This document shows positions 17,119 to 43,863 of a DNA stretch of 64,000 nucleotides, piece after piece (position 1 is the first letter of the stretch; every line of letters starts with the position of its first letter). A model generated the notes under the pieces. It was not told the DNA's origin, made no database searches, and saw only the letters and a program-made list of their open reading frames with translations. A program made the translations under genes and the position numbers. This stretch comes from Squalus acanthias. Its lineage: Eukaryota. The DNA lies in assembly GCA_030390025.1 (NCBI GenBank), contig CM059431.1, positions 139,626,001 to 139,690,000 of the forward strand, read 5' to 3'.

Positions 17119-17127
17119 ATAAATATA
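17119..17127 (+). promoter_or_regulatory. Putative TATA box of GPCR copy 1
   Basis: ataaatata about 80 bp upstream of the ATG. The paralog has tataaata at the equivalent position (30128-30135, minus). Confidence 0.45.
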
Positions 17128-17204
17128 GGTTCCCTTCCATTGCCTCAGCCATGCGTCAGTCAGATTCCCTCAGCTGCTGCAGAATTCATTTATTCTCACA
17201 GAAA

Positions 17205-18613
17205 ATGGGGCGACCAGCTATACTGCTAGTCAAAGAGATTTACTATCCGATTCTCGCAGCTGTCGGTGTCCCCGGTAAGTCATTGTAACCTGTTTGTTGT
17301 TAATCTGTGTTAACTGTTTCTGTGTTCTTGCAGCCTGTTGCATAAGGTAACTGTTTTACGGAAGTCAGCATTGCACAATGAACCGCGTTTCACACTCCGC
17401 GCTTTTCCTTTAATCTGATAACCTTACTGAAGTTCAATGCCCTTTGAAGCTCCGACACAAGGAATTTATGGATTTACGGACAGTCTTGTCAACACGTGCA
17501 GAGTGAGCGTTGCAGCAGCTCATTAAAATGTGTGGGTGGGTTTCCCAGGTAATGGCTCCAATATTAATCATTTTCTTACACTGCCTCCTGTTGATAATTA
17601 CACTGAATGGAGTAAAATGCCCTCAACAGGTATCTACATATGTATTTCTATCAGACACTGGAACATTATTTCTCTCCTCTCTCTTTCTTACAGCGAACTT
17701 GGTGACAATCGTGATTCTCTGCCGAGGAAACTGCGGCGTTTCCAAGTGTATCTCTATCTATACGGTGGCCATGGCAACAGCAGATCTACTGGTCATGATC
17801 ATTAATGTAATGGCGTATTATATTTTAAATTATCACTTTCCACTTTCCTTCATGTCCCAGACTCCCGTGTGTAAGTTAAATCTATACATGAATGCTGTCA
17901 CCTTCGATTTGTCTGTATGGTTCACCGTCTCCTTCACATTTGACCGATGTGTAGTTATCTGCTGCCAGAAGTTTAAAGTAAAGTATTGCACCGAGAGAAC
18001 TGCGGCCGCGGTTATAACATCGTTCTCTGTTTTGAGTTTTTTAAAGGGCATTGTCGTTTTTTTTGCATATGAATTTGAGCAAATAATTAACAAGGTGCAG
18101 TGGGGCTGTCGGTCAAGTGTAGCATTTTTTTCCGCACCTCCAGGTGAAGCGTATCTCTGGTTTCACATCATATGGCTCGTTTGGCTTCCCTTTACCTTAA
18201 TGGCTTTGTTTAATTATTTGACCGTCAGACGTATTTTAATGGCTATCAGAACCCGCAGGGGACTCCGGGGTCACACGAGTGAGAATCAGAGCGATCCAGA
18301 GATGGAGAACCGAAGGAAATCCATCATTTTGCTCTTCGCTATATCGGGCAGTTTTATATTGCTTTGGCTGACAACTGCCGTGAATTTGTTAATTACCAGA
18401 ATGACAAACATCAATTATTACCGAGGCGACCGCACAAACCCAGCTTATATCGCCACTGAAACCGGAGCCATGCTAAAGCTTTTGAGTTCCTGTATAAACC
18501 CGTGTATTTATGCAGCGACCCAAAGGAAGTTCAGAGAAGAGCTGAAGAAGGTGCTGAAATCTCCCTGGACACTGATTCTAAGACTGGTTAAACATGAAAG
18601 AAAGCCGAACTAG
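17205..18613 (+). CDS. GPR139/GPR142-like class A GPCR, copy 1; exons 17205-17274 and 17694-18613, 329 aa
   Basis: Exon 1 MGRPAILLVKEIYYPILAAVGVP ends G|gtaagt. Acceptor ctttcttacag|CG restores GVPAN (TM1). Motifs AMATADLL, FTFDRC, ECL2 Cys (WGC), NPCIY. No stops or frameshifts. Confidence 0.92.
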
Positions 18614-20084
18614 AGCTTTGGTTGGGACATTAGAATTCCGTTCTAGCTCGTGTTCCAGCTTAGACTGGGGTTCTCTCTGCTAACCGCTACATAAGGATTG
18701 TTCTTGTAAAACCTCACAGGTACACAAGTATATTTGAATTATATTTGGGCCCCTTTGTAGAATTTACGCCAACATGGACTGTGGGTTTCCGCAGTTCTTT
18801 GACCGAGTGCTTCCTCCCAAACAAGGTCATTCCCCCTTAAGTATGAAAAATGTCAGTGATGAAGTGAACTTCAATAGTGTGATACAATAGTTTACCAATT
18901 GGTTAAATATCTGATTCTGCGAGAAGTGTAATCCATTCTACCATATATTGAACGGATAATTCACCAATTTTAGGGAAAGATTTTGCCGTTTACAACTCCC
19001 GCTTCCCTTACTATTTCTAGCAGGTTTGGTGAAAATGTTGCTTGGACTGATTGCAGCTGCAAGGGCCGCTTCACCCCTTCTCCAGGGAATAAGGAGCGGT
19101 GCCGCTGTCCCCTTCACAGCGTTGGGATGTTTTACCACTTTTTGAATGTTTACTGGAGTTACCTCGCTTTAGCTGTTTTTTCTGATGACTCTATTAATGA
19201 GAAATAGCTGAAGGCTGCCCAGCAACAAATAAAGTTGTTACTTGCTGTTACTAAATGTATGATGGTGAATCTGACTGCTATAAATGTGAATCAGCGACCC
19301 TGTAACCTGGAAGCACAGAGTAAGAAATACAAATTCCTAATCGGGGCATTTCAGGCATGGATCAGTAACCAGGACTCACATATATTAATATGAAATAACC
19401 TGCTCTGTGTGTTGGTGCACAGAGAGTGCCGCTTAATACCCAGACCGTTTTACCAACTGATGTTGACCAGGTATCCCCAGTGCAAGGCGGTGTATTCGGA
19501 GCTCTGTCCGCCACCACTGGGGACCTAGGTTTGAGAGCAATGCTCGAGGCAAAGGCTTCAGTGGAAGATTTGAACGAATTAAATCGATTTTTATCCACCC
19601 GATAATATCTGAGCCTCGGTAGAAGCTGTATACCAATTTATTCTGCAGTATATTGATTGGAGATTGGAAGATGATGTGGAGAAGCTGTTCCTCGAACTGG
19701 GTAAATCCACTGTTCACACTGCAGGATGTGTAAGAAAGTCAGAGGACTGTCTCTGACTGCTTCCGCTGTTCTATTCAGTTTACCGGCTTGCACATATAAA
19801 CAGAGAACACTGTTATATTAATTGCTCTGTTGGTTTAAACTGATTGGCTTGCATGCGTTTTATTTTCGACAGCTGGGTTGTATTTTTTCGCGGTGCCTTC
19901 CATCTACTGCATGCCTGTAGTTTTCCTGATGATGTCGTTTTCCGCCCAGTGCCGGAATCACCCGCCCACAATAAAAGGGGACGGTGGGGGAAGGAGCGAG
20001 GTTGATTACTGTTACAGCTCTTCCATTGCCTGTCTATCATGGGTTAGCGTTCAAGTGAAAAACAGTAACATCTCATTTAAACGT

Positions 20085-20465
20085 ATACAATTCTGACAGG
20101 GCTAGATAGACTTACTGCAGGGAGGATGTTTCCGCTGTCTGGGAAGTCTAGAACGAAGCGTGACAGTCTCAGGATACGGGGTAGGACATATAGGACTGAG
20201 ATGAAGAGAAATTTATTCACTCAGAGGATGGTGAACATCTGGAATTCTCTACCAGAGAAGGCTGTGGCGGCCAAGTCAATTAATATATTTAAGAAGGAGA
20301 TAGACCGATTTTTAGACGCAAAAGACATCAAGGGCCATGGGAGGAGAGCGGGAATAAGGTATTGAGATAGAGGATCTGCCAGGATCATATTGAATGATGG
20401 AGCAGGCTCGAAGGGCTGAATGGCCTACTCCTGCTCCTATCTTTCCATGTTTCTATTTCTATCTA
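20085..20465 (+). mobile_element. CR1 3' fragment
   Basis: ORF 20126-20365 (MFPL.G.SRT..SLRIRG..RN.FTQR), 3' UTR and tail tttctat repeats. Confidence 0.9.
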
Positions 20466-20609
20466 ACCGAGATTGGAGTTCGGTAAAGAATTCCGCACAG
20501 TTACAGGATTAGGCCTTGGTTGGTATCTCTGAACTTCCGGTGTCCTGGTCAGTATTTATCACTCAACGAGCAGAAATACAAGCAGATTGAGAGTTTACAA
20601 CAGATTTTT

Positions 20610-20793
20610 GGGGTGAAATTCGACTTGGGCGGTAATGCAAAATTAACGGAATCCCATTTACCGACCGCCATACCACATGCCCGATATTCAATTGTATTGA
20701 ATTCATTGGAATTCAATATCGGGTGAAGCGTGTAACAGGTGAGCGATGCGATACCGCCAATTTTGCGACACCCGCCCATGCCCAATTTCACTC
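20610..20793. mobile_element. Palindromic MITE-like non-autonomous DNA element
   Basis: ggggtgaaatt..tgggcgg..gcaaaatt pairs with aattttgc..ccgccca..aatttcactc. Centre cccgatattcaatt / aattcaatatcggg. Confidence 0.7.
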
Positions 20794-20799
20794 TATCTG

Positions 20800-20920
20800 G
20801 TCATTTAACTGATTGCTGTGTGTGGGACCTCGCTGTGTTCAATTTGATTTTGCATTTCCTGTCTTTACAACATTGACTATAAGTCAAAATTATTGTTTGA
20901 AAGGTGCTATATAAATGCAA
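20800..20920 (+). mobile_element. SINE 3' fragment (Deu-type)
   Basis: attgctgtgtgtgggacctcgctgtg...tttcctg..ttacaaca..gactat...aggtgctatataaatgcaag, the reverse complement of the SINE tail at 7043. Confidence 0.6.
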
Positions 20921-22992
20921 GGGGCTGGAGGCTCGTCTTGTGCAGTAGCGGAAAATCATATCACCGCCTGTTATAGGACCCGGCCAATATTGCGGTGAAG
21001 ATCCGGCGGAGGATGTAATAGGTGACCCGCCCGTGGCCAAGTTAACCCAAGTTCATTATTTCCAGCCAAATCTCCGGAATTGGTTAGAAGGAGTAATTCA
21101 GTGTCCCCAATATTATCTGTTTTTAGCACAAGTTGAAAAGTCCATTTAGGCTTAGTAGAATCTGAATATTATGAATGACGAACATTTTCAATTTCGGCCT
21201 GGTCGGAAATGTGACTGAAGCGGACTGTCCGCCAGTCATACACTGCGCCCGAATTTTCCTTTTCACTGACTATAATGAAAAGTCATTTGTGTTGGTGTAA
21301 AATCCATTGCTGCCAATCGGCAGATTTCACTAAAGCGGAGGAAAGTTCAGTTAAATAACAGAATTATTGAATTGTTTCCTATTTTCGGAATACTAATTGA
21401 TAAAATACCGACACTGTTGAAGCAGCCAGCTATTGTTTAAAGACTCTTTACAATCAAAATCAGTTGTGCAGTGGCAGCATTTGGATTGTGGATCAACTTT
21501 TGCTTCTTTTAGATGCAACCTAGTCTCTCATAAATTCTTAGAGGCAGTAACAGATTTAAATGTTTGCTATAATTCTATTGCATAATGAAGTAGAAAGAAC
21601 GACTTGATTATTTCGCGTGTAAATCGCGTGAAGTTCTCAATCGTATATCTACAAGTCGGAAGACGATGATCGCGTTGGATGTGTTTGTATAACAGTGCAG
21701 AGAGTTCTGTAGTTGTAGACTGTTACTGGAGGATTACACGGCTCCGTCCTGAGTCTGACGGCGGCACTTATCATTGGAATCTGCAACTTATTCCACTCAA
21801 TGGTAGAAGAATCTAAAGGGAGCATTAGCTCAGCCGGAATTAATTACATATTGCGTTATATTAAAGGAAAGAAATTAAATGCCCAGCGCTATTGCCCACA
21901 AGGTTAATCATCGCGCAAAAACAGTAAACATAAATATTAACGATTTATTTGTTATCCTTGAACTACAAAAGTAAAAGAAAACAGCTGAACAAACAAACTG
22001 CAGGGAGTGAAAGATGCAGGAGCTCCTGAATAGAATTGGTGACACGTCACAGAATCGGCTGAGCGTTGCACCCATTGGCTGTTAGTGTCCGAAGTGTGAC
22101 GAATCAGATTTAATTTTTAAACACCTCGCCTATGTCAGCAGGGAACCGGTACTCCAGAATTTGGCGTTCTTCAGTATGCCCGCAGGAAATGAGGTCACAG
22201 TCGGATGGTCTAAGAAAAGGAAATGTGTCGTTGGTCAGTGTATGTGTCAGAATGCTTCGGCTTTCTCAGTGACCAGATGTCATTTTCCCCAGTCCCGGAA
22301 ATCCAACGGACCACCAAATTAGGGGAGTAAAACCCAACATCAAGTCCGTCAGCCCCGGGATATCAGTTCACTCTACAACTTTTCCAGCAAAGAAAATCAA
22401 ATAATCGGAACACAAGTCAGTGCAAGTTGGAAATTGAGTCTGTTCCGACCAACGTCCATGCGCAGTAATGCCTAAAAAGCCATATATCACGACAGATTCT
22501 ATTTTATTTTATTGTATTTCATTTTATTTTAACTTACTCTATCTTCAACTTGACTTTAAGCTGCCATCGTGATTTTGACTCTGTTTAATTTAGATGTAAC
22601 AATTTACATTGATAACCACAATGTCATTGTTCGTAGTGAGTTGCAGGGCTGTGTGTAAATTTAGCAAATGTGGTACTAAGGACGGGGAGAGACTGACAGT
22701 GGGAAGCGGATCTGGGATCTTGACGTAACTTTGGGAGATGTGGGCTCACAGTGAAGAGCTCAGACTGCAAAGAACGACATAAAGTGACGAGAGCCTTCTG
22801 CAAGGCCTTTTCCCGCAATAACCACTAACAGTTAAGTAAGTAGTAAATAGTTTCCATTCCATATAAGAGAAAGTTTAGTGAATCGGAAACGCATAACAGT
22901 GTTTTTATTTAAGGTTAGTGGATCAAATGAAGCGCATCAATATCTATAAACAATCATCACAGTCCATTACTAAATATAATAAACGACATTGT

Positions 22993-25900
22993 TGGTAAAG
23001 ACGAGGTCCTCCAAGCTCTGCATGCACTTATTCACACGTGGTATAGAGCTATTAATTAAACTGCCTATCGAAAGTGGTTAATTTACCAGCAGTCTAAGCA
23101 ATTACACTTAAACCAGTCTCAACAACTTAGAACCTCAGACTATTGTCCCTTTTGTAATTAATGCTCAGTATCCTTTGGTGCTGATTTACAGCGAAATACA
23201 GAATTGCCTGTACAACTTTTGCTGCTTAATCTTGTTAAGAGACTCCCCCATTAATGATATCCCACTCAATGAATGAATAACTGCGCTTACATGTCTTCCC
23301 GCGTATTAAGCGCCCGTGTGCACAACTTTAACTTTAGGCTGTTTTTGTTTACCGTGAAACGGCGTTTAGTACAAGGCGTGTGGTCTGGCGTCTGCCTTGA
23401 CGGTTTTGCAGCTTGAGGAATTCCTAATCGAGTGTTAGTAAATTAAATTAACTTTGATCATAACTGGGTTAAATGTAAGAGAGTTCGGGACCCGAACATC
23501 ATTTATTCCTAGACCTACACTGGGTGGAAACAACCCAGACAATTCCTTAGGAAAGAGATAAAGGACGGAAAAAGGAGTCGTCTGATTCCTCAGCATATCT
23601 CTGTCAAATACAAAAACTCAGCTTTCCAACAAGGGGATCTCCAGGACTTGGGAAAATACCTGGATTCACAGCACGGGAGATTCCGTGCGTTTGATGCTGT
23701 GTCTGGGCCCTTGAACACTACACAGGGAGAATACTTTGGTTGTTCTTTAATAGAACGCATATAACTGGATCGCCAGCTTCTGATTTGCGACAAAGGCTTT
23801 CCACTTAAAAACTGCCAGGATAAATATGGAACTGAACCAAATAATGTTAAACAATAGAGTTCTCATTCATGCCTGCTAAACTGCAGTATATGTAGTGAGA
23901 GGATTACTCCTTTTAAAAGTGTGTTTTTGATGCTCATCGCTACTTTCAAGAAAATTTGCTTGCTTTCTTCTTTATAAATCTTGATTGTCAAACTCCCAAC
24001 ATCGAACTTCCTCAGTTTAAATCCATGTTGGTCTTTGCTACGCAGCACCTGGAGATTGCAGTTTGTTTACAGCAGGGTAGGTTTCAAACGGCAATGTTTT
24101 TTCTGTGACCAACTTTCGATAATATAATTTTCAACTTCACCGGAAGGTAAGTAGGTTTGCTCTGAACGAACCTCCTGGTAATTCAATAAAAAACATACAG
24201 AATACAGTTACCCAATGAGCTGAAATGATCCGCCCGCCATCCCTCCTAACTCCTAATTTAACATTTTGAACTTGAAGATATTTATGATTGAACTCCTTGA
24301 CACGATGAATAATTTGAGCAAAGAAATTCGTATATTCTCCACATAAGCTTTAACAGGACATTGGATGGCTTGTAGGTATTCTCCTTGCTGGTCGTAGGAA
24401 GCACGATTTCATACAATTTCTTCAAAACAGGATTTGTGAATTCCTGTCATCTCTGTTGCTGAGCTGTGTGACCTATAATGTGCGGAAATATCATTTCCAT
24501 GATTTGGTTCCCAGAAGTGAACACACAGTCGAAGCGGGGTGAGAACAATACTTCCTGTAACAACAATAATACATTTGATTTGAACTCTATACCTCTGATA
24601 TTCCAGGAGCCATTCTCGAGCAAAGCGGAGATCTGGAACTGGCAGAGTGCGGGAAGTTGTGGTAATGGGATCTGGCAGAGTGTGAGATTCGATAGAAAGA
24701 AAAGAAACCAGGGGAGCGGGGGCAATGATGGGAAGGAGAGCGGGAAGATTAGAAAAAATCAATAGACGGAGACAGCTTCACTTTGAATTCATAAAATATC
24801 AATTGTATTAGTTTTCAGCTTTTAAATACAGATCGGCGAAACAATATTACCCATTCGATAAAATCGTTAAAGGAAGAGATTGGATCCATTTCAAAGCTGA
24901 ATAACATACCTAAAAAGTGTTTTGCTTAATATTGAACTGTTGATTATACATAAAAATTAAAGAATGAACTTATAAACTGAACATGAAATTGATCAAGTTC
25001 AAACTGAAGTTTCCCGTGTGAGGTCTTGGGCGGAGCCTCGACCACAGCGGGTGAATGACCTGAAAATTGCGACATGGCCAGAAGCTGGGAGAGTTCTCCA
25101 TAGAGCAGAGAAGGTTAAGGGGAGATTTACTGGAGGTGTTCAAAGTTATGACTGGTTTGAGTATATGAGGAAACATTGCTTCCACTGGCAGTAGGGTCGG
25201 TAAACAGAGGATATAGAATTAAGGTAATCGGCAGAAGAATCGTGCGGAAATTAGGAGTCTTTTTAACGCTGTGATTTGTTATGATGTGGAATGGACTGCC
25301 TAAAAGTTTGATGGAAACAGATTCAATAAAAAAGAAAGACATTCGTTTCTATAGCGCCTTTCACTACCTCAGGCCGCCCTAATTCGCATTACAGCCAATG
25401 AGGTACATTTGAAGTGGAGTCACTTTTGTAATGTTGGAAAGGCGGCAGTCAATTTGTGCACAGCAGGTCCCTCAAACACCCATGTGATGAGGATCAGATT
25501 ATCGGCCTTAGTGATGTTTGTTGAGGGATAAATATTGTCCAGGACACTGTGGAGAATTCCCCTGCTTCGAAATAATGCCACAGCATCTTTTACCTACACC
25601 AGCGAGGACAGAAGTGGCATCGGTCACGTCTCACACAAAAGCCGACACCTCCGACAGTGCAACACAACCTCAGTACTGCGCTGACGTGTCAGCATAGATT
25701 TTGGGTTCAAGTTTCTGGAGCGGGACTTTAACCACGCCCCACCCGCCCCGATCATTTGACTCAGAGAAAGTGCGACCACTGAGCCACTGCTGACACCTTT
25801 ATAAAATAGTAACTTTCAAAAGCGAATAGGATTCATACTTGAAAAACCAAAAGTTTGTTCAGCCATGACCTCATTGAATAGCAGAACAGGCTCGAGGGGG

Positions 25901-26673
25901 TAAAGGGCCTCCTCCCGATCCTATGTACCTATGTTTGATGGTCGATGGGGGAAGAGTAGGGGAGTTGGACTAATTGACTGCCTATTTCAAAGAGCCGGCA
26001 GACGCACAACAGGCCGAATGGCTTCTGTCTCTGCTCTATGATTCTACACATCTTGCATTGCGCGCGATCTTCCGTCCATTAATATCAAAGGAATGAAAGT
26101 TGAGGAAGCGCATCCGCAACTTGCTATAAACCACCTTTGTGCGTGTGGGACTCCGGCACTGGAGTGTGGAATTAAAATGTATTTATCCATTTTAAAAAGA
26201 ATGAAAGGTACCACAGGTCCAATAATTATATAGGGGTAATATTATGGATAAAGGCAAAGATATTTCAGAATATAAAGCATTAAGCAGGTAGACTATTATG
26301 TTTAAATAAGACCGTTTAATTAGTGTCCCGAGTAGAGCACAAGTGAATCATCGAAGGAGTGATTGTTGGAACGGCAGCGATGAGGCGAATTTCAAATGGA
26401 AAATGTGAATCTGGAATCCAGGGACCCAGACACGTCGAAATAAAGGAATGGCGACTGACAGGAGTGACGGTTTACTGACACTGCTGCAAGTTTCCTCAAT
26501 TAGAGAAGATTCCTGAGGATCCGATAGTGGCTGAAATAATTCCAATGTTTACAATAAGGCCAGGAGAGATCCAGTGCGTGAGCACCTGGGAGAGGAGCAA
26601 TGTAAAAGGGAATTGTATTTGTTTGATGGACCATGAGTCATCTTTAACTGACCTGTTGGAGCTTCTGAAACAC
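22993..26673 (+). repeat. Segmental duplication, copy B (paralog at 2231-8275)
   Basis: Collinear with copy A but lacks the 5S/Penelope insert and the roughly 1.1-kb block that contains the 40-bp array. Confidence 0.9.
25329..25800 (-). mobile_element. tRNA-derived Deu-type SINE (duplicated copy of 7043-7500)
   Basis: Same sequence and same flanks as the SINE in copy A. Confidence 0.7.
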
Positions 26674-27059
26674 ATCACTGGCCTGTAGGGCAGGGGAAAT
26701 GCAGTTGGAATGATCCAGTCTGATTTTTGCGAAGCAGCAGACAAGGTTCCACATCTACAAACGGTGGGGAATTATGGGATGGGAGGTAGAACTGGCACTG
26801 CACAGACAGTTCATTACAAAATGATACTAGATTATCGACAAATGGGAACCTGTAAGGGACGGGTGACTATTGAACCTCTGGGATCTTCCTTGGTACCAGT
26901 TTATTTTTAATGTTTTCTATCTTAGAATCTCAACGGCGATGAGGGTAATTTAGAAACAAAAACAATTAAAATGAAACGAAAGTAAGTAACACTGCAAACC
27001 ATAAAAATTTACTTGGTGGGAGTAGGTTATGTGACCAATTCTATCTCTACTGAGTTCTT

Positions 27060-28685: not shown

Positions 28686-30048
28686 TCATTTTCTAACTAA
28701 TTTCAGAATGAGTGCCCAGGTGGATTTTGCCACCTTCTTCAGCTCTTCTCTGAATTTGCTCTGGGTCGCTACATAAATACACGGGTTTTGAAAGCAACTC
28801 AAAAACTTCAACATTGTTCCGGTTTTAGTGGCGATATATCCAGGGTCTGTGCGGTCACCTCGATAATAGATGGTGTTTGCCAGACTGGTAGTTATAAAAC
28901 TCACGGCAGTTGTCAGCCACAGCAATATAAAACTGCCGGATATAGTAAAAAGTAAAATGATGGATTTCCTTCGGTTCTCTGTCTCTGGATCGCTCTGATT
29001 TTCACTCCTGTGACCCCGGAGTCCTCTGCGGGCTCTGCTGGCCACTAAAATACGTCTGACTGTCAAATAATTTAACAAGGCAATTAAAGTGAAAGGAAGC
29101 CAAACGCCCCAGGCGCTGTGAAACCAGATGTAGGCAACACCTGGAGGTGAGGAAACAAAAGTCACACTGTTCCGGCAGCCCCACTGCACCTTGTTAATTA
29201 TTTGCTGTGGTTCAAATGCAAACAAAATGGGGATGTCCCTTAAAAGGATTAGGACCGTGAACGCTGTGATAACCGCGGCCGCAGTACTCTCGGTGCAATA
29301 CTTTGCTTTAAACTTCTGGCAGCAGATAACTACAAATCGATCAAATGTGAAGGACACGGTGAACCAAACAGACAAATCGAGGGTGACAGCAGTCATGTAT
29401 AGAATGAACTTACACACGGGAGTGTGGGACAGGAATGAAAGTGGAAAGCGATAATTGAAAATATGACACTCTATTACATTGACTATCATGACCAGTAGAT
29501 CTGCTGTTGCCATGGCCACCATGTAGACAGAGATACACTTGGAATGGCCGCAGTTTCCTCGGGAGAGAATCACAATTGTCACCAAGTTCGCTGTAAGAAA
29601 GAGAGAGGAGAGACATAATGTCCCAGTGTCTGATCGAAATATATATGGAGATCCCTGTGGAGAGCATTTTAATCCATTCAGTGTAATTATCAATAGGCAG
29701 CAGTGTGAGAACAGGATTAGCTTTGGAACCATTGCGTGAGAAAACGACCCACACATTTTAATGAGCTGCTGCAGCGCTCACTCTGCACGGGGGAACAAGA
29801 CGCTCCGGAATTCCGCTGAAATCCTTGTGTTGGAGCGTCAAAGAACATTGTAACATCAGTAAAGTTATCGAATTTGTATACTGCTGAAATCTGGAAAACT
29901 CGTTACCTTATCAAACAGGCTGCATGTACATGAATACAATTAACACCGATTAACAAAAAACAGGCTACAATGGCTCACCGGGGACACCGACGGCCGCGAG
30001 AATCGGGTAGTAAATCTCTGTGATCAGTCGGATAGTTGTTCGCCCCAT
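28686..30048 (-). CDS. GPR139/GPR142-like class A GPCR, copy 2; exons 30048-29979 and 29590-28686, 324 aa
   Basis: Exon 1 MGRTTIRLITEIYYPILAAVGVP ends G|gtgagc. Acceptor ctttcttacag|CG. Motifs AMATADLL, FTFDRF, WGC, NPCIY. Intact. Confidence 0.92.
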
Positions 30049-30479
30049 TTTCTGTGAGAATGGATGAATTCTGTAGGAGCTGAAAGACTCTGACTGGCGC
30101 ACGGCTGGGGCAATTGAAGGGAACCTATATTTATACACACATCAATCCTCCAGCGAGTCAATCAGGTTAAATCATAATTAGCTTTAGTTACAGTCATTTA
30201 ACAAATTGACTCAGGTAAGTTGTTTTTTTATCTGACACGTCAGTTTAAGAGAAATATGTGAAATTGTTGTTGGACAATTACAAAAAAAATGCAGATTTAA
30301 AACATTGTCTACGTGTATGAAGTGCATTCTCCAAGGACTATTTCTGACCCTATTCCTACAGGCCTGTTAAAGGCAGCTTCCCACGCAATAATTGTCATAA
30401 CCCTGCCCTTGATTCATTCCAAGTGCACCAACTCCTACAGAATCACATCGTGCGATATTGGTGATGAACCCAGTCCGGC

Positions 30480-31880
30480 AGCATTCGAGGTGACAGTTCT
30501 CCTCCTGGGCTACTGGCACTGTACACTTACGCTAGATGTGTCCGTACTCATCAGGTACTAGTACCATGCCGACACTGGAGTTGAACGTGCTGCTATGGTA
30601 ATAGTGGTAGCACTACACTCACACTACTATTGACAGAGCTCCTCCGGTACTAGTGGAAACCCCCCTCATACACTATATGAGCATGTGCTCCTCCTGTCCC
30701 AGTGTTATCCCTACACTGACACTAGATGTGACCGTGTCCCTCCTGTCCCAGTGTTACCCCTACACTGACACTAGATGTGTCCGTGCCCCTTGTGTCCCAG
30801 TGTTACCCCTACACTTACACTAGATGTGACCCTGCCCCTCATGTCCCAGTGTTACCGCTACACTTACACTAGATGTGACCCTGCCCCTCATGTCCCAGTG
30901 TTACCGCTACACTTACACTAGATGTGATCGTGTCCCTCCTATCCCAGTGTTACCCCTACACTTACACTAGATGTGACCCTGTCCCTCCTATCCCAGTGCT
31001 ACCCCTACACTGAGACTAGATGTGACCGTGCCCCTCCTGTGCCAGTGTTAATCCTACACTGACACTAGATGTGACCGTGCCCCTCCTGTCCCGGTGCTAC
31101 CCCTACACTTACACTAGATGTGACCGTGCCCCTCCTGTCCCAGTGCTACCCCTACACTTACACTGGATTTGTGCAAGCTCCTCTGGTAATAGTGGTATCA
31201 GTAAAATTACACCAGTGGTGAAAATTGTCCTCCACTACCAGTGTTAACCCTACACTTACACTAGATGTGACTGTGCTCCTCCGGTACTAGTGGTATCCCT
31301 ATATTTACATTAAGTTTGACTGTGCTCCTTCGGTACTTGTGGTACCCCTACACTAAGACCAGATTTAACCGTGCTCCTCCCGTACTTGTGGTCCCCGACA
31401 CGTACACGTGCTGCTCAAAAAGCTGTGCTGGCACTTTATGTGACCTTGCTCCTCTGGTACTTGTTGTACATACACTTATACTACAGAGGAGCATTCACTA
31501 GTGGCATGCCTACACTTACACTTACAGTCACCGTCCTCCTCAGGTGCTCGTGGAATCAGTACACTAACATTAGTGTTGACCGTGTTCTACCTACACTAGT
31601 GGTAACTTACACTTACACTAATGTAAACCGTGCTCCTCCTAAACTGGTGGTAACCTACACTAACACTCGTGTTGACCATGCTCATTCTACACTAGTGCTA
31701 ACCTACACTAACACTAGCGGTGACCGTGCTCCTCCGGTACAAGTAGTACCGCTACACTTAAACTAGGTGTGACCATGATGCTCTTGTATTAGTGGTACCC
31801 CTATAATTACACTGGAAATAACAGTGCTCCTCCGATACTAGTGATACTCCTACATTTACACTAGTAGTGACCGTGCTCCT
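30480..31880 (-). repeat. 49-bp minisatellite upstream of GPCR copy 2 (homogeneous core about 30685-31165)
   Basis: Unit cccctacacttacactagatgtgaccgtgcccctcctgtcccagtgcta. Period 49 (31081 to 31130). Confidence 0.93.
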
Positions 31881-33933: not shown

Positions 33934-33970
33934 CTTTCCCTGGTTATCCTCTTGCTCTTAATATACTTAT

Positions 33971-34179
33971 TGATGGAAGAAAACTACTAGGCACTTGGTC
34001 TAAGTGTTAAACAAAGCTTTAATCAACTGGTTTTCAACATGGAGATCTAGTTGTGTCCTTTTCTAGTTCCAGTTGAGGCATGCCCTAAGCAAGTTGGGCT
34101 CATGCACTAGTATTTATACTCTCCCTGGACAGCGCCACCAGCAGGCCACCCAGTATTACTTCATACAAGATTCATGTCA
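33971..34179 (-). repeat. 3' LTR of the Gypsy element (about 209 bp)
   Basis: On the minus strand it begins TGACATG right after the purine tract aggcgggaagaa (34180-34191), ends TTCCATCA, and contains TATAAATA and ATTAAA. Confidence 0.7.
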
Positions 34180-36317
34180 TTCTTCCCGCCTGAAAGATTG
34201 GAAGTCCAGCGGCTTCCTTCTACCGAATTAGCTGGACTAAGATTAGACGCAGTCGTTTGGATTTCCGTTGGAGGCCGGAAGGCACATCTCCTTGGACTGT
34301 GTTTCGGTCGCTGGGGCACTTGGTTCATACCGGCGGGCTGGCAGAGTCTGTGACGCCTTGATCGACCTGAGGGGGACTGGGGAGACCTTGGCTCCGGGTG
34401 CGGGTCCCCACCGGTGCAGAGCTGGCTTCATCCTGCTCAGTAGCCGGTGATTGACCGTCGTCCTGGCTTCGGGTGGCCATCCGCGGGGAGCGCTCTGTTC
34501 CCCGGGTTGATCCAGCAAAGTAGCTGGTAGATCCCTTGATGTCCCGGGTAGGGCGTCATCCTCGGAGGAACGCGGAGTATCGGCGTCGGTAATACAGATC
34601 TCTCTATCGATTGGGTCCGTGGGACCGGTTGGGCAGGGAGCCAGATCCCGAAGTGAAACTGTGGACTCCCAGCCATCAGGGTACCGTACGTACGTGTATG
34701 TAGGATTGACATCCGTTAGTTCCACATGGTCGACGAGGGGATCACTCTTGGAGGATCGGACGAATCTTCAGAGCAGCACGGAGCCAGGAGCTGCCAACCA
34801 TGATGGTAGGGACGTCCCATGAGTGGAGCGACGCTGGAACCCGAAGAATCGTTCGTGAGGAGTAACATTGGTGGATGGAGAAAGAGGCCACCTGATGGAA
34901 TGCAACGCGTCAGGGAGCATAGTTTCTCACTGCTGGTCTGGTAGATTGGGTGATCTGAGTGCAAGACGAACAGTGTTCCAAATGATCGCATTGTATCTCT
35001 CAACCTGTCCGTTTGCAATAGGATGATACGGTGTCCATTTACTTGTGGTGATTTCCCGTTGGGAAAGATAACTTTTGAGTTCACTTGACATGAAGGAGGG
35101 ACCCCGATCAGAGTGGATGAAATTGGCCATACCGCAAAGGGAAAAGGCCTGATCGAGGCATTTCATCACTGTGGAAGTAATCATATTGGGACAGGGGAAA
35201 GCAAAGGGAAAGCGTGAATATTCATCCACCATAGTAAGCAAGTAGGTGTTTCACGTTGAGGAAGGCAATGGCCCTTTAAAGTCAATGCAGGGTCGCTGCA
35301 TAGGCTGTGTAGCGTGTATGAGTGAGCCATCTGACGGACGGAAGAATTGCGGTTTTAATTACGATCAAATTCTACAAGTGCAGCATGTTCTTTTCATGTC
35401 CTCCGTAGAAAATGTGAGATTTTTAGATCGCACAAAGTGCAACATACGGGTAACGCCAGGATGGCATAAGGCAGTATGAGGATCCGCAAGAGTCGAAGTT
35501 GATATGGAAGAGCAGAATGCAAGCATGAGGGTATCCGGGGCCATATTCTCCTTGCCGGGTCGATATTGTATGGTGTAGTCAAAAGCGGCCAATTACATCC
35601 TCCAGAGCTGTATTTTGTTATTCTTGATTTTAGTGCATTTCCGGTTATCCAGCATAAAGGCCACCGAGCGCTGATCGGTTATGAGCGTGAAATGGCGACG
35701 GGCAAGAAAATGACTCCATTTTCATTGTGCTTCAATGATAGCCATAGCTTCCTTCTCGACAGGAGGGTAATGCAGGTCGCTACCTTGCAAAGTTCTAGAC
35801 AGAAAGGCAACGGGTCGACCGCCTTGATTCAAGGTAGCCGAGATCGCCACCTCCGATCCATTGCACTCGACCACAAAAGGGAAATTTTCATCGATGGAAT
35901 GAAGAGCGGCTTTTTCCAGTTGTTGCTTGAGGAGGTTGAAAGCTAAACTAGCCCTCGCCTCCAACGGAAATGACTTTGCATGAAGCAGGGGCTGGATGTT
36001 GTCAGCAAAGTGAGGTATCCACTTCGCATAATAGGCGAACATGTCGAGGGCCCGACGAAGAGAGCTGAGATTCGTAGGAGGAGGGAGCTCCTGAAGCGGA
36101 CGAAGTCACTCCGGATCCGGTTTGATGACACCATTGCCCACCCAGTAGCCAAGGATGTTGACTGATGGTACTGATTTCACAGATTTGAACTCATTTAAGG
36201 TTAAGGTGCGACGACGGAGAACGTCAAGAAATTTCTGGAGTTTGGCATCATGCTCCTTCTGATCATGAGCAGCAATGGTGATATTACCAAGATATGGAAA
36301 AGTGTCTGTTAAGTTCT

Positions 36318-38246
36318 CATAAGAACATAAGAACATAAGAAATAGGAGCAGGAGTAGGCCAATCGGCCCCTCGAGCCTGCTCCGCCATTCAATAAGATCA
36401 TGGCTGATCTGATCCTAACCGCCAATCTACTATCTATCACAGAACCATCTCCTGCATCTAACAGAATTGCACACACGAAATAGGAGCAGAATCAGGCTAC
36501 ACAGTCCCTGGGCCCGCTCCACTACCCACAGGGCCATGACCGATCCGAACCTAGACTCATGTCCAAATTCCTGCCCGCTCCCCGTAACCCTTAATGCCCT
36601 TTACTTCTAGGAAACTGTCTATTTCTGTTTTAAATTTAATTAATGTTGTAGCTTCTACAGCTTTTTGTGGCAGCATATTCCATGGACCTACCACCCTCTG
36701 AGTGAAGTAGTTCCTCCTCATCTCAGTTTTGAAAGAGCAGCCCCTTATTCTAAGACTATGTCCCCTAGTTCTCGTCTCACCCGTCATCGGGAACATCCTC
36801 CCCGCATCCACCCGATCCAACCCCTTCACAATCTTATATGTTTCAATAAGATCGCCTCTCATTCTTCTGAACTCCAATGAGTAGAGTCCCAATCTACCCA
36901 ACCTCTCCTCATATGACCACCCCCTCATCCCCGGGATTAACCGAGTGAACCTTTTTTTGCACTGCCTCGAGAGCAAGGATGTCTTTCCTTAAGTAAGGAC
37001 ACCAAAACTGTATGCAGTATTCCAGGTGCGGTCTCACCAATACCTTGTACAACTGAAGCAATACCTCCCTATTTTTATATTCTATCCCCCTAGCAATGAA
37101 AGCCAACATTCCATTTGCCTTCTTAATCACTTGCTGCACCTGCATACTAACCTTTTGAGTTTCGTGCACCAGGACTCCCAGATCCCTTTGCACTTCAGTA
37201 CTCTCCAGTTTCTTGCCATTAAGATAATAAATTGCTCTAGGATTTTTCCTGCCAAAGTGCATCACCTCACACTTTCCAGTGTTGTATTCCATCTGCCAAA
37301 TCTCTGCCCACTTACTTAGCCTGTCTATGTCCCCTTGCAGGTTTTTTATGTCCTCCTCACTCACTACTTTCCCTCCCATCTTTGTATCATCTGCAAATTT
37401 TGATATGTTACACTTGGTCCCTTCCTCCAAATCGTTAATATAGATTGTGAAGAGTTGGGGACCCAGCACTGACCCCTGTGGAACACCACTAGTTACTGAT
37501 TGCCAGTCTGAGAATGAACCATTTATCCCAACTCTTTGCTTTCTGTTAGATAGCCAATCCTCTATCCATGCCAGAATATTACCCCCAATTCCGTGATTTT
37601 TTACCTTAAGCAATAATCTTTTGTGTGGCACCTTGTCAAATGCCTTTTGGAAGTCTAAATACACTACGTCCACTGGTTCCCCTTTATCCACTCTATATGT
37701 TACTTCCTCAAAGAACTCCAGCAAATTTGTCAAACATGACTTCCCCTTCGTAAAACCATGCTGACTTTGTCCTATTAAATTATGATTATCCAAATGTCCT
37801 GTTACTGTTTCCTTAATAATGGACTCCAAAATTTTACCTACCACAGATGTTAGGCTAACCGGTCTATAGTTACCAGCCTTCTGTCTACTGCCCTTTTTAA
37901 ATAAGGGTGTTACATTAGCAGTTTTCCAGTCTGCCGGGACCTTAGCGGAATCCAGGGAGTTTTGAAAAATTATTACCAATGCATCTACAATCCCTACCGC
38001 CACTTCCTTCAAGACTCTAGGATGTAAGCCATCAGGTCCAGGTGATTTATCCACCTTGAGTCCCATTATTTTACCGAGTACCACTTCCTTAGTGATTTTG
38101 ATCGTGTTTAGCTCCTCTCCCCCTATAGCCCCCTGTTTGTCCAGTGTTGGGATATTCTTAGTGTCCTCTACTGTAAAGACTGATACAAAATATTCATTCA
38201 GTGTTTTTGCCATCTCCATATTTCCCACCATTAATTTCCCGGTCTC
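36318..38246 (-). mobile_element. Young CR1 LINE, RT-only portion, one frameshift
   Basis: ORFs 36909-38288 and 36557-36976 cover the whole RT to the C-terminus. Tail (cataagaa)n at 36318-36341. Confidence 0.95.
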
Positions 38247-38576
38247 CTGTTTGACTAGGCTATCCATTGCCCGTTGAAAGACGGCCACCCCATTGGTGAC
38301 CCCGAATGGAAGGCGACGAAACTGGTAAAGCAGACCATTGGCCTCAAAAGCCGTATACCTTTCATCAGAGTCCTTTAACGGTACTTGATGGTATGCGCTC
38401 TTTAAGTCAAAAGTTGAAAATACCTAGTAGTTAGCAAGGTTATTGACCATGTCATCGATTCGTGGTAGTGGGTAGGCGTCCAGGTCGGTATACTGCTTAA
38501 TAGTTTGCGAGTAGTCGATGCAAAGACGTTTCTTGTGTTGCTTCAGAGAATTTTTAACAACGACGACTTGAGCCCT

Positions 38577-38918
38577 TAGAAACATACAAACATAGAAGAT
38601 AGGAGCAGAAGTAGGCCTTTCGGCCCCTCGAGCCTGCTCCGCCAGTCAATGAGATCATGGCTGATCATCCAAATTCAGTACCCTGTCCCTGCCTTTTCCC
38701 CATATCCCTTGATCCCTTTAGTCATAAGAAATATATTTAACTCCTTCTTGAATATATTTAATGAATTGGCCTCCACTGCCTTATGTGGTAGAGAATTCCA
38801 CAGGTTCACCACTCTCTGGGTGAAGAAATTCCTCCTCATCTCAGTCCTAAATGGCTTACCCCTTATCCTTAGACTTTGACCCCTGGTTCTGGACTCCCCG
38901 GCCATCGGGAACATCCTT
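38577..38918 (-). mobile_element. CR1 3' fragment (same subfamily as 9241-11910)
   Basis: ORF 38675-38914. 3' UTR near-identical to 9265-9585. Tail agaaacat. Confidence 0.92.
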
Positions 38919-38919
38919 C

Positions 38920-41760
38920 ATTAACTCTATTCATTTTAGAGTGCGATCACCAGCAGTAACGTTAGAGTACAGTATTCATCAGTAACGTCAGAGTATGGAT
39001 ACCACATGTAAATTTAGAGCAGATGCTCCACCAATAATATTGGAGTAAGGACAACCCACTAATGTTAGATTCGGGTCACCATAAGTCTTAGAGTAGAATA
39101 AACAGAAGTAATATTACAGTAGGGTTGCCGCCATTAACGTTTTAGCAGTGGCAGCAGCAGTAAAATTAGAGTTGTTTCACCATCACTAATATTAGTGCGG
39201 GGTCACGACTATTGATGTTAAATTAACATGAACACCAGTAATGTTAGAGTCGGGTCGGCAAAAGTAATGTTAAATTGGGTCACCGCCATTAATGATAGAG
39301 AACGGTCACCACCAGTAACGATAGAGTAGGCTCACCACCAGTAATGATAGAGTAGGGTCATCACTAGTACTGTGAGAGTAGGGTCAACACCAGTAATGAT
39401 AGTGTAGGGTCACCACCAGTAATGATAGAGTAGGGTCATCACAGGTTATATTCGAGCAGGGTCATCTACAGTAAAGATAGAGTAGGGTCATCACAGGTTA
39501 TATTCGAGTAGGGTCATCAGCAGTAATGTTAGAGTCGGGTCATCACCAGTAATATTAGAGTAGGGTCAAAACCAGTAATGTTAGAGTCGGGTCCTCACCA
39601 GTAAATTTAGAGTAGGGTCACCACCAGAAATGTTAGCGTAGGGTCACCACCAGTAATGATAAAGTAGGGTCATCAGCAGTAATGTTATTGTAGGATCACC
39701 ACCAGTAATGTTAGAGTAGGGTCACCACCAGTAATGATAAAGTAGGGTCACCACCAGTAATGATAGAGTAGGGTCATTACCAGTAATATTAGAATATAAT
39801 CACTGCCAATAATTTTAGAGTAGAGACACCACCAGTAATGATAGAGTCGGGTCATCAGTAGTAATGTAAGCGTAGGGTCACCGACAGTAATGTTACAGTA
39901 GGGTCACCACCAGTAATGATAGTGTGGGTTCACAACCAGTAATGAAAGAGTAGGGTCACCACCAGTAAGGTTAGTGTAGGGTCACCACTAGTAATGTTAG
40001 AGTAGGGTGACCACCATTAATGTTAGAGTAGGGTCACCAAAAGTAATGATAGCGTAGGTTCGCCAGCAGTAATGTTAGAGTCGGATGACCACCAGTAATG
40101 ATATAGTAGAGTCATCACCAGAAATGTTACTGTAGGGTTACCAATTCTAATGTTAGTCTAGGGTCACCAGCTGCAATTTTAGTGTAGGGTCAACACACTA
40201 ATGTTAGTGCAGGGACACTACCGGTAATGTTGAAGTAGGGTCACCACCAGTAATGTTAGTGTAGGGTCACCACCAGTAATGTTAGGGTAGGGTCACCACC
40301 AGTAATGTTAGAGTAGGGACACCAACAGTAGTGTTAGAGTAGGGTCACCACCAGTAATGTTAGAGTAGGGTCATCACCAGAAAGTTAGGATCGACTCACC
40401 ACCAGTAATGATACAGTAGGGCCACCATCAATAACGTTAGAGTCAGGTCATCACCATTAATGTTAGAGTATGGTCACCACCAGTAATCAAAGAATAGGAT
40501 CACCGCCATTAATATTAGTGTACTATGCCCACCTTAATGTTAGTGTAGGGTCAACACCAATAATATTTGAATAGGATTACCGCCAGTAATGATAGGATAG
40601 GGCTAACACCATTAATGTTAGCGTATAGTTACCATCAGTAAAGTTAGAGTGGGTCGCCGCCAAATTGTTAGATTATTATCACCACCATGTTAGAATAGGA
40701 TTAACACTATTAATTTTACAGTGCGATGACCAGCAGTAATGTTAGAGTACAGTACTCATCATTAACGTCAGAATATGGAGACCACATGCAATGTTAGATT
40801 AGATGCACCACCAATATAATTGGAGTAATGTCACCACCACTAATGTCAGATTCGGGTCACCATCAGTCTTAGAGTAGAATAAACACAAGTAATATTACAG
40901 TACGATTGCTGCCATTAACGTTTTAGTAGTGTCAACATCAGTAAAATTAGAATAGATTCACCATCACTAATGTTAGTGCGGGTCACGACTATTGATGTTA
41001 AATTAACATCAACACCAGAAATGTTAGAATAGAATCATCGCCAGTAATGTTAAAGTAGATTCACCACAGTAATGTTAGAGTAGGGTCTACACCAGAAATG
41101 TTACAGCAGGGTCACCCCCAGTTATGATAGTGTAAGTTCACCACCAGTAATGATAGAGTAGAGTCACCACCAGTAATGTTAGAGCTGGGTCTTCACCAGT
41201 AATATTAGAGTAGGTTCACCCACCTGTAATGATAGAGTAGGGTCATCCACCTGTAATATTTGACTAGGGTTACCACCAGTAATGTTAGAGTAGAATCACC
41301 ACCAGTAAGGATACAGTAGGGCCACCATCATTAATGATAGAGTAAGGTCATCAGCATTAATGTTAGAGTAGTGTCACCACCAGTAATGTTTGAATAGGAT
41401 CACCGCCAGTAAATTCAGAGTAGTATCACCACCAGTTATGTTAGTGTAGGGTCATCACCAAAAATATTTGAATAGGATTACTGCCAGTAATGTTACGATA
41501 GGGCCAACACAATTAAAGTTAGTCTATAGCTACCATCAGTAACGTTAAAGTGGGATGACCTTCAGTAATGTTAGTGTAGGGCATCACCAGTAATGTTCGA
41601 GTGTGGTCAGAATTTGTAATGCTAGATTAATGTCACCACCGGTAATGTTAGAGTAGCGTCCCCACCATGAATGTTAGAATATGGTCATTATTGTTCGTGT
41701 TAAAGTAGGATCATCACCAGCCATGTTCGAGCTGAGTCACCACTAGTAATCATTACAGTA
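38920..41760 (+). repeat. 26-bp minisatellite (about 100 copies) upstream of GPCR copy 3
   Basis: Unit gtagggtcaccaccagtaatgttaga. Period 26 (40261 to 40287). Confidence 0.95.
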
Positions 41761-42156
41761 CATAACAAATTTAATTTATGCAAAGGATGACTGATGTTTT
41801 CAGAGAATTAAAATGTGGTCACAAGAACTAACGCGGTGTCCAGGAGGGGTGTTCCCTTCAGCGTTCAGGGGGCATGCACAGAAAACATTCCCTCTGGGAT
41901 TACTTTCCGCTCAATAATTTTAATGGAATTAGTTTCATGGACTGAGCTTTACAATTTCCCCAGTGGTGGCCCGGGCGCACTGAAGTGGAAAATCGCTCCT
42001 TGTTTGTTAAGTGACTGTAACTAACGCCACTTATTGTGTCACCTGATTTTCTCACCGGGGCAACGATTTTTGTATAAATTGGGAGCATTTACGGATCTCA
42101 GATAAACTCCAGTCGGAACCGTAAAGCGGGACAGAATTCACACATTCTTCAAAAAA

Positions 42157-43863
42157 ATGATACGGCCAACAATTCTACAGATAAGGGACATTTACTACCA
42201 TATGCTCGCAGCCTTCGGTGTTCCCGGTAAGTCAATGTATCCTGTTGTCGAATAGTTGTTGACTATCTCAGTGTTAATGTAACAGATTCCGAGAATGTCC
42301 TCATTGCAGAATCATTGATCCACCGGGATCAGTCGGTGAATATCAGCGGGAATTCCGGCACTCCGCGCGGCCGCTGAGGCGCTGTTCTGGTCGCAAGATC
42401 GTGGGCACCGGGCGCTCAACTGTCATCCCTATACGGAGGGAGGGCGAGGCGGATTCCCCGGCCCCTCCTACAGTACATAGATCACTCAGACGGTGTTGCT
42501 CATTGTCCATAGTAATCATCTGATTCGTACCTTTGTCTCTGTCTATTTTAAGTTGATAATTCCTGGCACTTCAGCCACCTCCACCCAACACTGGACTTTG
42601 GAAGGTAATTTGAGAAATGATTGTTGCTCGGGGAGCTGCTCCCCTCCTCTCGGCAGCGTTTCGAATTAAATTGAACTGTTTTCTCTCAGCTGAATGTTTT
42701 ATTTGAAATATATCTTTCCATGAAATGCCGTGAAATTATATTTAGTATTTGACTGAAGTTTGCTGGAAGGACGGCGGATTTTCAGTCCCTCGATATTGAA
42801 TTCTCAATGATTTCATTTCTTTAAATAAAGTGTCTTTACCCTCGCTTATATTAATGATAAAAGATCCGTGAGCATAACGCTGAATAAGGACAGATCCGCA
42901 CATTTCCCCACAATACGCTGTGAGATTTATCCGAGTGTCCCCGTTACTGATCTCTTCCACCTCTTTCTCACAGCGAACCTACTGACAATCCTGATTCTCT
43001 CCAGAGGAAACTGCGGCCTTTCCAAATGTATCTCTGTCTGCATGGTGGCCATGGCAACCGCAGATCTACTGGTAATGATCATCAATATATCAGTGAACCG
43101 CATTTTCAGTCATCACTTTCCACATTCCTTCCTGTCCTACACTGCCGTCTGTAAGATCATTATGTACATGCAATGTGTTACACTCTATGTGTCGGTGTGG
43201 TTTACAGTCTCGTTCACATTTGACCGATGTGTAGCTATATGTTGTGAGAAGTTTAAAACAAAGTATTGCACAGTGAGAACTGCGGCCGCGGTTATAACAA
43301 CGGTCTCTCTCCTGATCTGTTTACAGAGCCTCCCTTTTTGGTTTGCATATGAACCTGAGAGAATAATTAACAATGTTCACTGGGGTTGCCGCGCCAGAGT
43401 GGAGTTTTTTTCATCGCCTGCAGGTGCAGCATACTCCTGGTTGGAAAGTATTTTCATTGCTTGGCTTGCTTTTGCTTTGATATTACTATTTAATTGTTTG
43501 ACAGTCAGACGCATTTTAGTGGCCAGTAGAGCCCGCAGGGGACTCCGGGGTCACAGCAGTGAGAATCAGAGCGACCCAGAGATGGAAAACCGGAGGAAAT
43601 CCATTATTTTACTGTTCAGTGTATCGGGCAGTTTTATATTGTTGTGGCTAACAGCTATCGTTAGTTTTTTAACTACCAGACTGACAAACACCACGCAGTA
43701 TCGAGGTGATTATGCAGCTCCTGCCTATATTGCCACTGAAACCGGATATATGCTCATGTATTTGAGTTCCTGTACAAACACATGTATTTATGCAGCTACC
43801 CAAAGTAAATTCAGGGAAGAGCTGAAGAATGTGGTGAAATGGCCTTGCACATTTTTTGGTTAA
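42157..43863 (+). CDS. GPR139/GPR142-like class A GPCR, copy 3; exons 42157-42226 and 42974-43863, 319 aa
   Basis: Exon 1 MIRPTILQIRDIYYHMLAAFGVP ends G|gtaagt. Acceptor ctttctcacag|CG. Motifs AMATADLL, FTFDRC, WGC, NTCIY. Intact. Confidence 0.92.

Follow-up and report, generated by a model that had tools for sequence, protein, structure and literature searches.

A 64,000-nt stretch of the Squalus acanthias genome (assembly GCA_030390025.1, contig CM059431.1, positions 139,626,001 to 139,690,000; hereafter the window) contains three intact class A G-protein coupled receptor (GPCR) genes, g1, g2, and g3. In this genome, the family to which they belong numbers at least 2,372 copies. Judged from its genes, the family is a real, independently evolved large receptor repertoire. 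It is best called a GPR210-type expansion, apparently a member of the GPR210-type clade, sister to GPR139/GPR142. We put the chances at about even that its members work as a set of receptors for chemicals from the environment, with peptides or other molecules carried in the water as the probable ligands. The genes are already present in RefSeq under a machine-given name, and no description of the expansion was found in literature searches whose coverage mostly excluded subscription papers.

The three genes lie in +/-/+ orientation, have two exons each, and encode proteins of 329, 324, and 319 amino acids (aa), all of which matched Pfam 7tm_1 above the cut-off. None of the frames contains an internal stop. 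A first-pass annotation, made from the letters of the window, had described three intact paralogs in this arrangement amid decayed DNA, each with a phase-1 intron at GVP/AN. This description held: the gene models are open, the intron interrupts the Ala codon of that motif in every gene, and the remainder of the window consists of broken long interspersed nuclear elements (LINEs), long terminal repeat (LTR)-type retroelement DNA, and satellites. No further fragments of the receptor family were present within the window beyond g1–g3. The same annotation had the first coding exon as identical in the three genes, which is true of its length (70 nt each) but not of its sequence (48–59 of 70 nt identical in pairwise comparison). 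Exon 2 proteins share 76% identity between g1 and g2, 68% between g1 and g3, and 70% between g2 and g3.

Three-way identity extends over 192 of 315 positions and is unevenly distributed. The stretch that spans intracellular loop 3 (ICL3) and transmembrane helix 6 (TM6), said earlier to be almost invariant, is indeed identical three ways at 32 of its 37 positions. The corresponding counts for the outer parts of TM2, TM3, and TM5 are 4/12, 7/15, and 5/14, and all nine variable peptides previously quoted from these helices were found in g1–g3. Pairwise ratios of nonsynonymous to synonymous change (dN/dS) among the three genes were 0.16–0.29 for the inner half of the receptor and 0.43–0.62 for the outer half.

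Genome-wide paralogs were counted by exact codon patterns. A TM3-motif pattern gave 2,372 matches in the S. acanthias genome and none in the control, and a TM6-motif pattern gave 398 genome matches and a single control match. Distinct loci fetched at TM3-pattern matches (62, being the first listed and therefore a non-random sample) comprised 61 clear family loci and one degraded piece. The pattern misses copies, as it was found in 59/60, 16/20, and 21/29 loci chosen by other routes, and the copy number is accordingly a lower bound. Protein searches with g1 and g3 produced 4,687 and 6,494 candidates, respectively; the best 129 were scored for g1, all with at least 73% identity, and the best 133 for g3. 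Family clusters occur on contigs C1, C3, C6, C7, C12, C18, C21, C26, C29, and C30 and on many unplaced contigs, with 26 pattern matches in 3.3 Mb around the window. One subfamily has at least 311 copies. Paralogs are thus far from few, and the proposal of a lineage-expanded birth-and-death family is borne out by the copy number, the clusters, and the mix of intact and broken copies, at a scale far beyond what had been guessed.

Exon 2 was open (at least 285 codons) in 29 of the 62 sampled loci and broken in 33. Where exon 1 could be located for loci with an open exon 2, it was intact in 22/26 by hand tally, a count that excludes loci with long introns whose exon 1 did not fall within the fetched DNA. 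Applied to 2,372 copies, these fractions indicate that there are probably about 900 intact family genes (roughly 700–1,200). Three loci (L191, L194, and L197) have an open exon 2, but the 5' part of exon 1 is replaced by unrelated sequence with no in-frame ATG, so counts of exon 2 overstate the number of intact genes. Among 170 loci, 12 pairs were at least 99.5% identical, and some copies may therefore be uncollapsed alleles. Five broken copies on two large contigs, L179–L183 (C26 at 42.0–44.0 Mb and C27 at 23.5 Mb), are 98–99.9% identical; either a pseudogene was recently multiplied by segmental duplication or the assembly is at fault.

Outside this genome, a protein database search returned 2,033 proteins. 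Among the 120 matches listed, all were from sharks or sawfish and nearly all carried the label "probable G-protein coupled receptor 139". When representatives at 50% identity were searched with a profile and the names of 30 proteins were looked up, skates, a stingray, an electric ray, a manta, and the chimaera Callorhinchus were added. In a phylogenetic tree, a sawfish protein joined g1/g2 and a white-shark protein joined g3; because these proteins group within them, the g1/g2 and g3 subfamilies are old.

The genes had initially been assigned to GPR139/GPR142 as paralogs, and in the strict sense this assignment fails. A GPR139-specific pattern matched the genome once, on C18, and the gene at that site is the true GPR139 ortholog (96% identity to ray and 88% to human GPR139), with its intron acceptor at the same codon as the family intron. 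A grouping of the family, GPR139, and GPR142 as one group was rejected by the approximately unbiased (AU) test on 27 rows (p 0.005); a grouping of the family, a salamander gene, and GPR139/142 was not rejected on the same rows (p 0.089). In the tree rooted with invertebrate outgroups (50 rows), GPR139 and GPR142 together stood opposite a clade with the order (C9 type, (C17 type, (salamander gene, shark family))), in which C9 and C17 denote genes on those shark contigs. This clade received support of 98/96 and contains long branches. The tree with GPR139 and GPR142 that the first-pass annotation had proposed points to kinship as a sister lineage and not to membership of either clade. Outside sharks, the family has its closest relative in the salamander gene (newts and axolotl; P0448, P0509, and P0512), with support of 100/99; this gene carries the motif DPEM-x-x-RR-x-SI-x-LL. 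When the shark genome was searched with it, the 119 scored matches all had 30–37% identity and none stood out. The family probably derives from one GPR210-type ancestral gene by repeated duplication.

GPR210A and GPR210B are orphan receptors adjoining GPR139/142 that were named from coelacanth, gar, and teleost genes, with a third, coelacanth/gar subtype (ENSLACP00000019189) left unnamed; the accessible part of the naming study covers cartilaginous fish nowhere and reports no function for either receptor (PMC6504862). Very probably the C9 type is GPR210A and the C17 type GPR210B, since the two coelacanth proteins lie 1393 apart in UniProt accession (with the letter O skipped) and the two Ensembl ids given in the paper differ by the same number. 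C9-type orthologs were present in sharks, chimaera, rays, coelacanth, lungfish, sturgeon, gar, and teleosts, and the coelacanth match of the C17 gene clustered with a teleost protein in the tree. Scores against the family profile were 86–123 bits for GPR210A-type proteins, 57–72 for GPR139, and 45–56 for GPR142. The single-copy relatives found here come from fish and amphibians only, loss in amniotes not having been searched for directly.

The GPR210A-type gene, represented by L155 (G000:C9:120524810-120528499) and L198, is apparently single-copy and bears the database label GPR139. It has the same intron as the family and retains P6.50 and R6.51, and the forkhead-like box described below is absent from the 200 nt scanned upstream of it. 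The GPR210B-type gene, L208 (G000:C17:37412263-37416243), is likewise apparently single-copy, is 62% identical to the coelacanth protein, and has the same intron acceptor. An earlier tree with partial galanin-receptor outgroups did not resolve the base and was superseded by the tree with invertebrate outgroups. Three last exons, L152, L153, and L154 (on C24, C27, and C18), which we take to be galanin-receptor-like, scored best against the Srw Pfam model, and two of them had served as those partial outgroups.

Conserved positions were tallied in 47 family rows, with generic residue numbers assigned from motifs. The class A positions N1.50, D2.50, R3.50, C3.25–C45.50, P5.50, W6.48, N7.49, and Y7.53 were each present in 42–47 of the rows (position 5.50 of g3 is Ala), and N1.50, D2.50, R3.50, N5.58, F6.44, N7.49, and Y7.53 are near-invariant. 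Proline at 6.50 (the CWxP motif) occurs in 0/47 rows, and P7.50 (NPxxY) in 9/47. A basal catshark member and the salamander gene retain P6.50. Family members share with GPR210A/B the phase-1 intron, a short N-terminus of the form YYP-x-L-x-x-x-G-x-P/AN, the cysteines linking TM3 to extracellular loop 2 (ECL2), and probably, by the tree above, a place in the same clade. By contrast, GPR210A/B are apparently single-copy in this genome as elsewhere, with P6.50 and R6.51 retained in the A type, whereas the family has thousands of copies, lacks P6.50, and has gained the long DPEM-x-x-RR motif at ICL3/TM6 in common with the salamander gene. In a structural model of a homolog (77% identity; pLDDT 80), seven helices are present, the first beginning at residue 5. 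Pfam searches of g1–g3 and three homologs matched 7tm_1 only, and membership of the OR, TAAR, V1R, V2R, or T2R families was absent from these six proteins.

The resemblance to GPR139/GPR142, from which the database label originates, lies in the intron position, N5.58, W6.48, the DR motif, and the fold. In a Foldseek search, the top match was GPR139 (PDB 7VUG; E 1.5e-9, 20% identity), and the next matches followed at 3e-9. GPR139 and GPR142 form the sister clade, however, and are without the C3.25–ECL2 disulfide, and R6.51, which they have in common with GPR210A, is gone from the family. Four residues are required for activation of GPR139 by Trp and Phe (PMC5430874). At this site (F3x33, H5x43, W6x48, and N7x38), g1 and g2 keep two of four residues and g3 keeps one. 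Across the family, W6.48 is present in 42/47 rows, the TM5 His in 24/47, and N7.39 in 4/47, and the F3.33 column is variable. These sequences lend no support to sensing of aromatic amino acids through the GPR139 mechanism, most of whose binding residues they have lost. With most of the GPR139 site, R6.51, and P6.50 lost, the pocket and the TM6 hinge are evidently remodelled.

Selection was assessed in three sets of sequences: 30 copies near g1–g3 (set 1), 34 diverse copies (set 2), and 17 members of the subfamily of at least 311 copies (set 3). The analyses used our own codon code, for which the M0 likelihood agreed with that of IQ-TREE. Values of omega for the inner helices were 0.33 in set 1 and 0.26 in set 2, and the value for the inner half in set 3 was 0.35, as compared to 0.53–0.96 for outer helices and loops. 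Change is uneven across the receptor. For pocket positions, omega was 0.94, 0.65, and 0.34 in sets 1 to 3; for extracellular loops it was 0.59, 0.71, and 0.96. Exposed loops of the large subfamily change 2.7 times faster than average. The safe reading of these values is strong constraint on the inside with relaxed to diversifying change on the outside and, for the large subfamily, a hot zone in the loops and not in the deep pocket. The original picture of a conserved coupling side and a variable pocket thus stands as a contrast between sides but not for the deep pocket of that subfamily, where the loops vary instead. Model M2a improved on M1a in all sets (twice the log-likelihood difference 10.6, 129.6, and 145.7). 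The flagged sites were a single one in ECL2 in set 1, 18 of 18 on the outer side in set 2 (posterior >0.8), and 25 of 26 on the outer side in set 3 (>0.9). Site-level positive selection on the outer side is likely.

A short proximal module, located about 130–180 nt upstream of the ATG in most subfamilies, carries four boxes in fixed order and with conserved spacing: T[AG]TTTG[CT]T, a TGTAAnTAA-like box, a TC(C/A)nTGGAG-like box, and a TATA-like box. The first was present in 12 of 13 subfamily representatives as compared to 6 of 89 background windows, and in 6/9 held-out promoters fetched later as compared to 3/83 background windows. It resembles forkhead sites. Homeodomain-type TAATT[AG] sites occurred in 8/13 and 5/9 promoters, against 10/89 and 11/83 in the respective backgrounds. 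The module is kept across subfamilies with about 45–55% protein identity whose introns do not align. All promoter copies descend from one ancestor and are for that reason not independent observations. The module shows common regulation under selection but leaves the cell type unnamed. In one subfamily (L070, L094, and L112), the region about 100–240 nt upstream of the ATG holds tandem repeats of the module with a 48-nt period and hence two or three forkhead-like boxes.

Evidence of transcription was sought in three contig sets from one study, which are not recorded as RNA and were aligned at 80% likeness. A contig from a paralog (171 nt, depth 3.4) spans the g1 intron with an exact exon–exon joint and encodes G-V-A-A-N there, with 16 differences in the 100-nt upstream piece. 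Spliced sequence, one of the checks suggested at the outset, is thus represented by this contig. A retrocopy as its origin was considered and is weakened by the absence from the assembly of any intronless copy with such a junction pattern. Other contigs cross the intron and the promoter and, on a member of the large subfamily, repeats and exons as well; for that member no exon 1–exon 2 joint was present among the matches listed (15 of 50 joints). Contig depth is meaningless for expression, because the contigs run through intron and promoter and may be DNA or unspliced RNA. These data suggest, though weakly, that one member or more is transcribed and that its splicing follows the gene model.

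The suggestion that the family senses outside chemicals draws on its size and clustering, its constrained inner and fast-changing outer side, its shared promoter, the small olfactory repertoires known from sharks, and its likeness to known chemoreceptor repertoires. The OR, TAAR, V1R/ORA, V2R/OlfC, and rodent formyl-peptide receptor families also form large clusters with pseudogenes, a short shared promoter, a conserved cytoplasmic face, and a variable ligand side. The shark family differs from them in sequence membership, in having an intron within the coding region, and in being known here from genes. If the suggestion is correct, all members would signal via the same G protein through the conserved ICL3/TM6 face, and differences in ligand between them would arise at the pocket rim and in the extracellular loops. 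The common promoter would activate the family in a single type of cell, the likeliest being chemosensory cells in the nose, mouth, or skin. A more specific version, which we hold tentatively, is that of an unrecognised cartilaginous-fish chemoreceptor family that arose from a GPR210-type orphan, with about 900 intact members, one or a few per sensory cell, and a forkhead-driven promoter.

By Atlas features, the nearest look-alikes outside sharks are FMRFamide-receptor/Srw-like clusters. The invertebrate FMRFamide-receptor-like expansions resemble the shark family in deep lineage (Atlas features and outgroup placement) and in repeated tandem expansion; they are independent, occur in other phyla, and differ in that shark members fall below the Srw Pfam model. 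In the accessible portions of the respective papers, nematode srw chemoreceptor genes belong to the FMRFamide-receptor-like lineage (PMC3963977), and about 450 tandem FMRFamide R-like genes are present in a snail (PMC11589774).

Several observations weigh against a sensory role. The sensory reading is known here from genes plus one spliced contig, which alone speaks for mRNA because the contigs also cover promoter and intron. The olfactory O/E consensus is YCCCNNGGGR in the source section available (PMC8213819). Its strict form was found in 0/13 representatives and 0/9 held-out promoters, and a form with one mismatch, present in 7/13, was not repeated in the held-out set (2/9 as compared to 7/83 in background); the reading as an olfactory O/E promoter was not adopted on these grounds. 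Mean omega exceeded 1 in no region of any set, and region-wide positive selection was not found. The outer side has the higher synonymous rates too, and this inflates the M2a signal. When the synonymous rate was left free per site, the outer and inner counts were 11/134 and 3/152 in set 1 (p 0.025), 5/132 and 1/152 in set 2 (p 0.10), and 8/132 and 0/153 in set 3. Gene conversion, which lies outside the codon models used, may homogenise the inner half, and part of the ICL3/TM6 constancy may be due to it, since synonymous rates are lower there too. The available sections of three studies point the same way. Catshark olfactory neurons are all Go/TRPC2 microvillous cells with a probable V2R co-receptor widely expressed (PMC10116579), a pattern that may leave little room for another family. 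No GPCR is among the top 50 genes specific to a catshark brain-plus-olfactory library (PMC11979771). The snail FMRFamide-like receptors that were tested are broadly ectodermal and reproductive and were not shown to be sensory (PMC11589774).

The strongest competitor to chemical sensing, which we regard as doubtful, is an immune or somatosensory surveillance repertoire on leukocytes, mast-like cells, or skin sensory neurons that would recognize microbial, parasite, or damage peptides, by analogy with MRGPRs or formyl-peptide receptors. The low omega of the deep pocket and the fast loops of the large subfamily suit large ligands or a surface arms race. The short N-terminus, the loss of P6.50, and a strongest promoter motif that is forkhead-like and not olfactory O/E are consistent with it as well. 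MAS1-related receptors are reported missing in cartilaginous fish in the accessible part of one study (PMC8455134). However, the sequence pattern fits surveillance and chemosensory functions alike.

It is improbable that segmental duplication and gene conversion in repeat-rich DNA produced most of the family as a side effect, with a few members modestly useful and copy number set by drift. Such an origin would be compatible with the broken state of 33/62 sampled copies, with the near-identical pairs and the many copies on unplaced contigs, with tandem arrays upstream of 19 of 34 genes (intron controls 18/60), and with region-level omega values that never exceed 1. Against it stand the strong purifying selection on the inner half in all three sets, the retention of the promoter module across subfamilies with non-alignable introns, and subfamilies common to sharks and rays, the sawfish protein that joins g1/g2 among them. 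Least probable is a role like that of GPR139/GPR142, in which brain, gut, or endocrine cells would use the receptors to sense internal metabolites or hormones, for example aromatic amino acids or neuropeptides. The shared intron position, a top fold match to GPR139 by a thin margin, and the retention of W6.48 and often the TM5 His would fit, but the genome already holds a single true GPR139, the Trp/Phe residues are mostly lost, and a ligand from inside the body does not explain why hundreds of receptors should diverge.

Whatever its role, a family of more than 2,300 copies under the label "probable GPR139" alters the receptor count of sharks, which are described as GPCR-poor in the part of a whale-shark paper available (PMC8455134). 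Cartilaginous fish have about 10–50 olfactory receptor genes despite large olfactory organs, in the accessible part of a study that covered OR, TAAR, V1R, and V2R only, and the copy number reported here is one to two orders of magnitude above that whole known shark olfactory repertoire (PMC10116579). In the portions of text available, GPR139 appears in neither the catshark sensory paper (PMC11979771) nor the whale-shark paper (PMC8455134), and a GPR139 review (PMC12208981) does not mention sharks. If the family is chemosensory, it would constitute a new vertebrate chemoreceptor class and bear on how sharks discriminate odours. Under the more specific version above, the repertoire would be as large as that of mammalian odorant receptors, and the view of shark smell as based on a few dozen receptors would be overturned. 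Were the role immune or somatosensory, the oldest lineage to possess adaptive immunity would have a receptor repertoire of unusual size. Zebrafish-type fish and salamanders (axolotl) have relatives that appear to be single-copy, through which the ligand and cell type of the ancestor could be approached in the laboratory.

Table 1. Features of the three receptor genes, their promoters, and the surrounding repeats (positions within the window).
Feature	Position	Strand	Description
g1 proximal promoter module	17046-17130	+	putative; forkhead-like box, TGTAAnTAA-like/homeodomain-type stretch, O/E-like box, TATA-like box
g1 exon 1	17205-17274	+	70 nt, coding; short N-terminus and first half of TM1
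g1 intron	17275-17693	+	GT-AG, phase 1, 419 nt
g1 exon 2	17694-18613	+	coding; remainder of seven-helix receptor
g2 proximal promoter module	30123-30207	-	aligns with g1 and g3 promoters; one change in forkhead-like box
g2 exon 1	29979-30048	-	70 nt, coding
g2 intron	29591-29978	-	GT-AG, phase 1, 388 nt
g2 exon 2	28686-29590	-	coding; total protein 324 aa
g3 proximal promoter module	42001-42085	+	sole non-coding upstream stretch aligning with g1 and g2, about 67-69% identity
g3 exon 1	42157-42226	+	70 nt, coding
g3 intron	42227-42973	+	GT-AG, phase 1, 747 nt
g3 exon 2	42974-43863	+	coding; total protein 319 aa
48-nt tandem array	16467-16757	.	upstream edge of g1/g2 duplication unit
49-nt tandem arrays	30685-31880	.	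upstream of g2; related to array upstream of g1
LTR-type element fragment	34246-38423	-	reverse transcriptase (RT) and RNase H domains; interrupted by LINE RT fragment
26-nt tandem array	38936-41750	.	109 copies; ends about 400 nt upstream of g3
78-nt tandem array	48368-52843		split into three by LINE insertions (48975-50786 and about 52065-52660)

Within the LTR-type element, the frame of the LINE RT fragment continues into the LTR-type RT frame. A satellite before every gene was considered as a family feature and set aside as minor: arrays were found in 19/34 upstream windows as compared to 18/60 intron windows, and the copies are related and not independent. The arrays differ by subfamily, with periods of 26, 27, 30, 35, 48–49, 53–54, 61, and 90 nt, and end about 330–900 nt upstream of the ATG.

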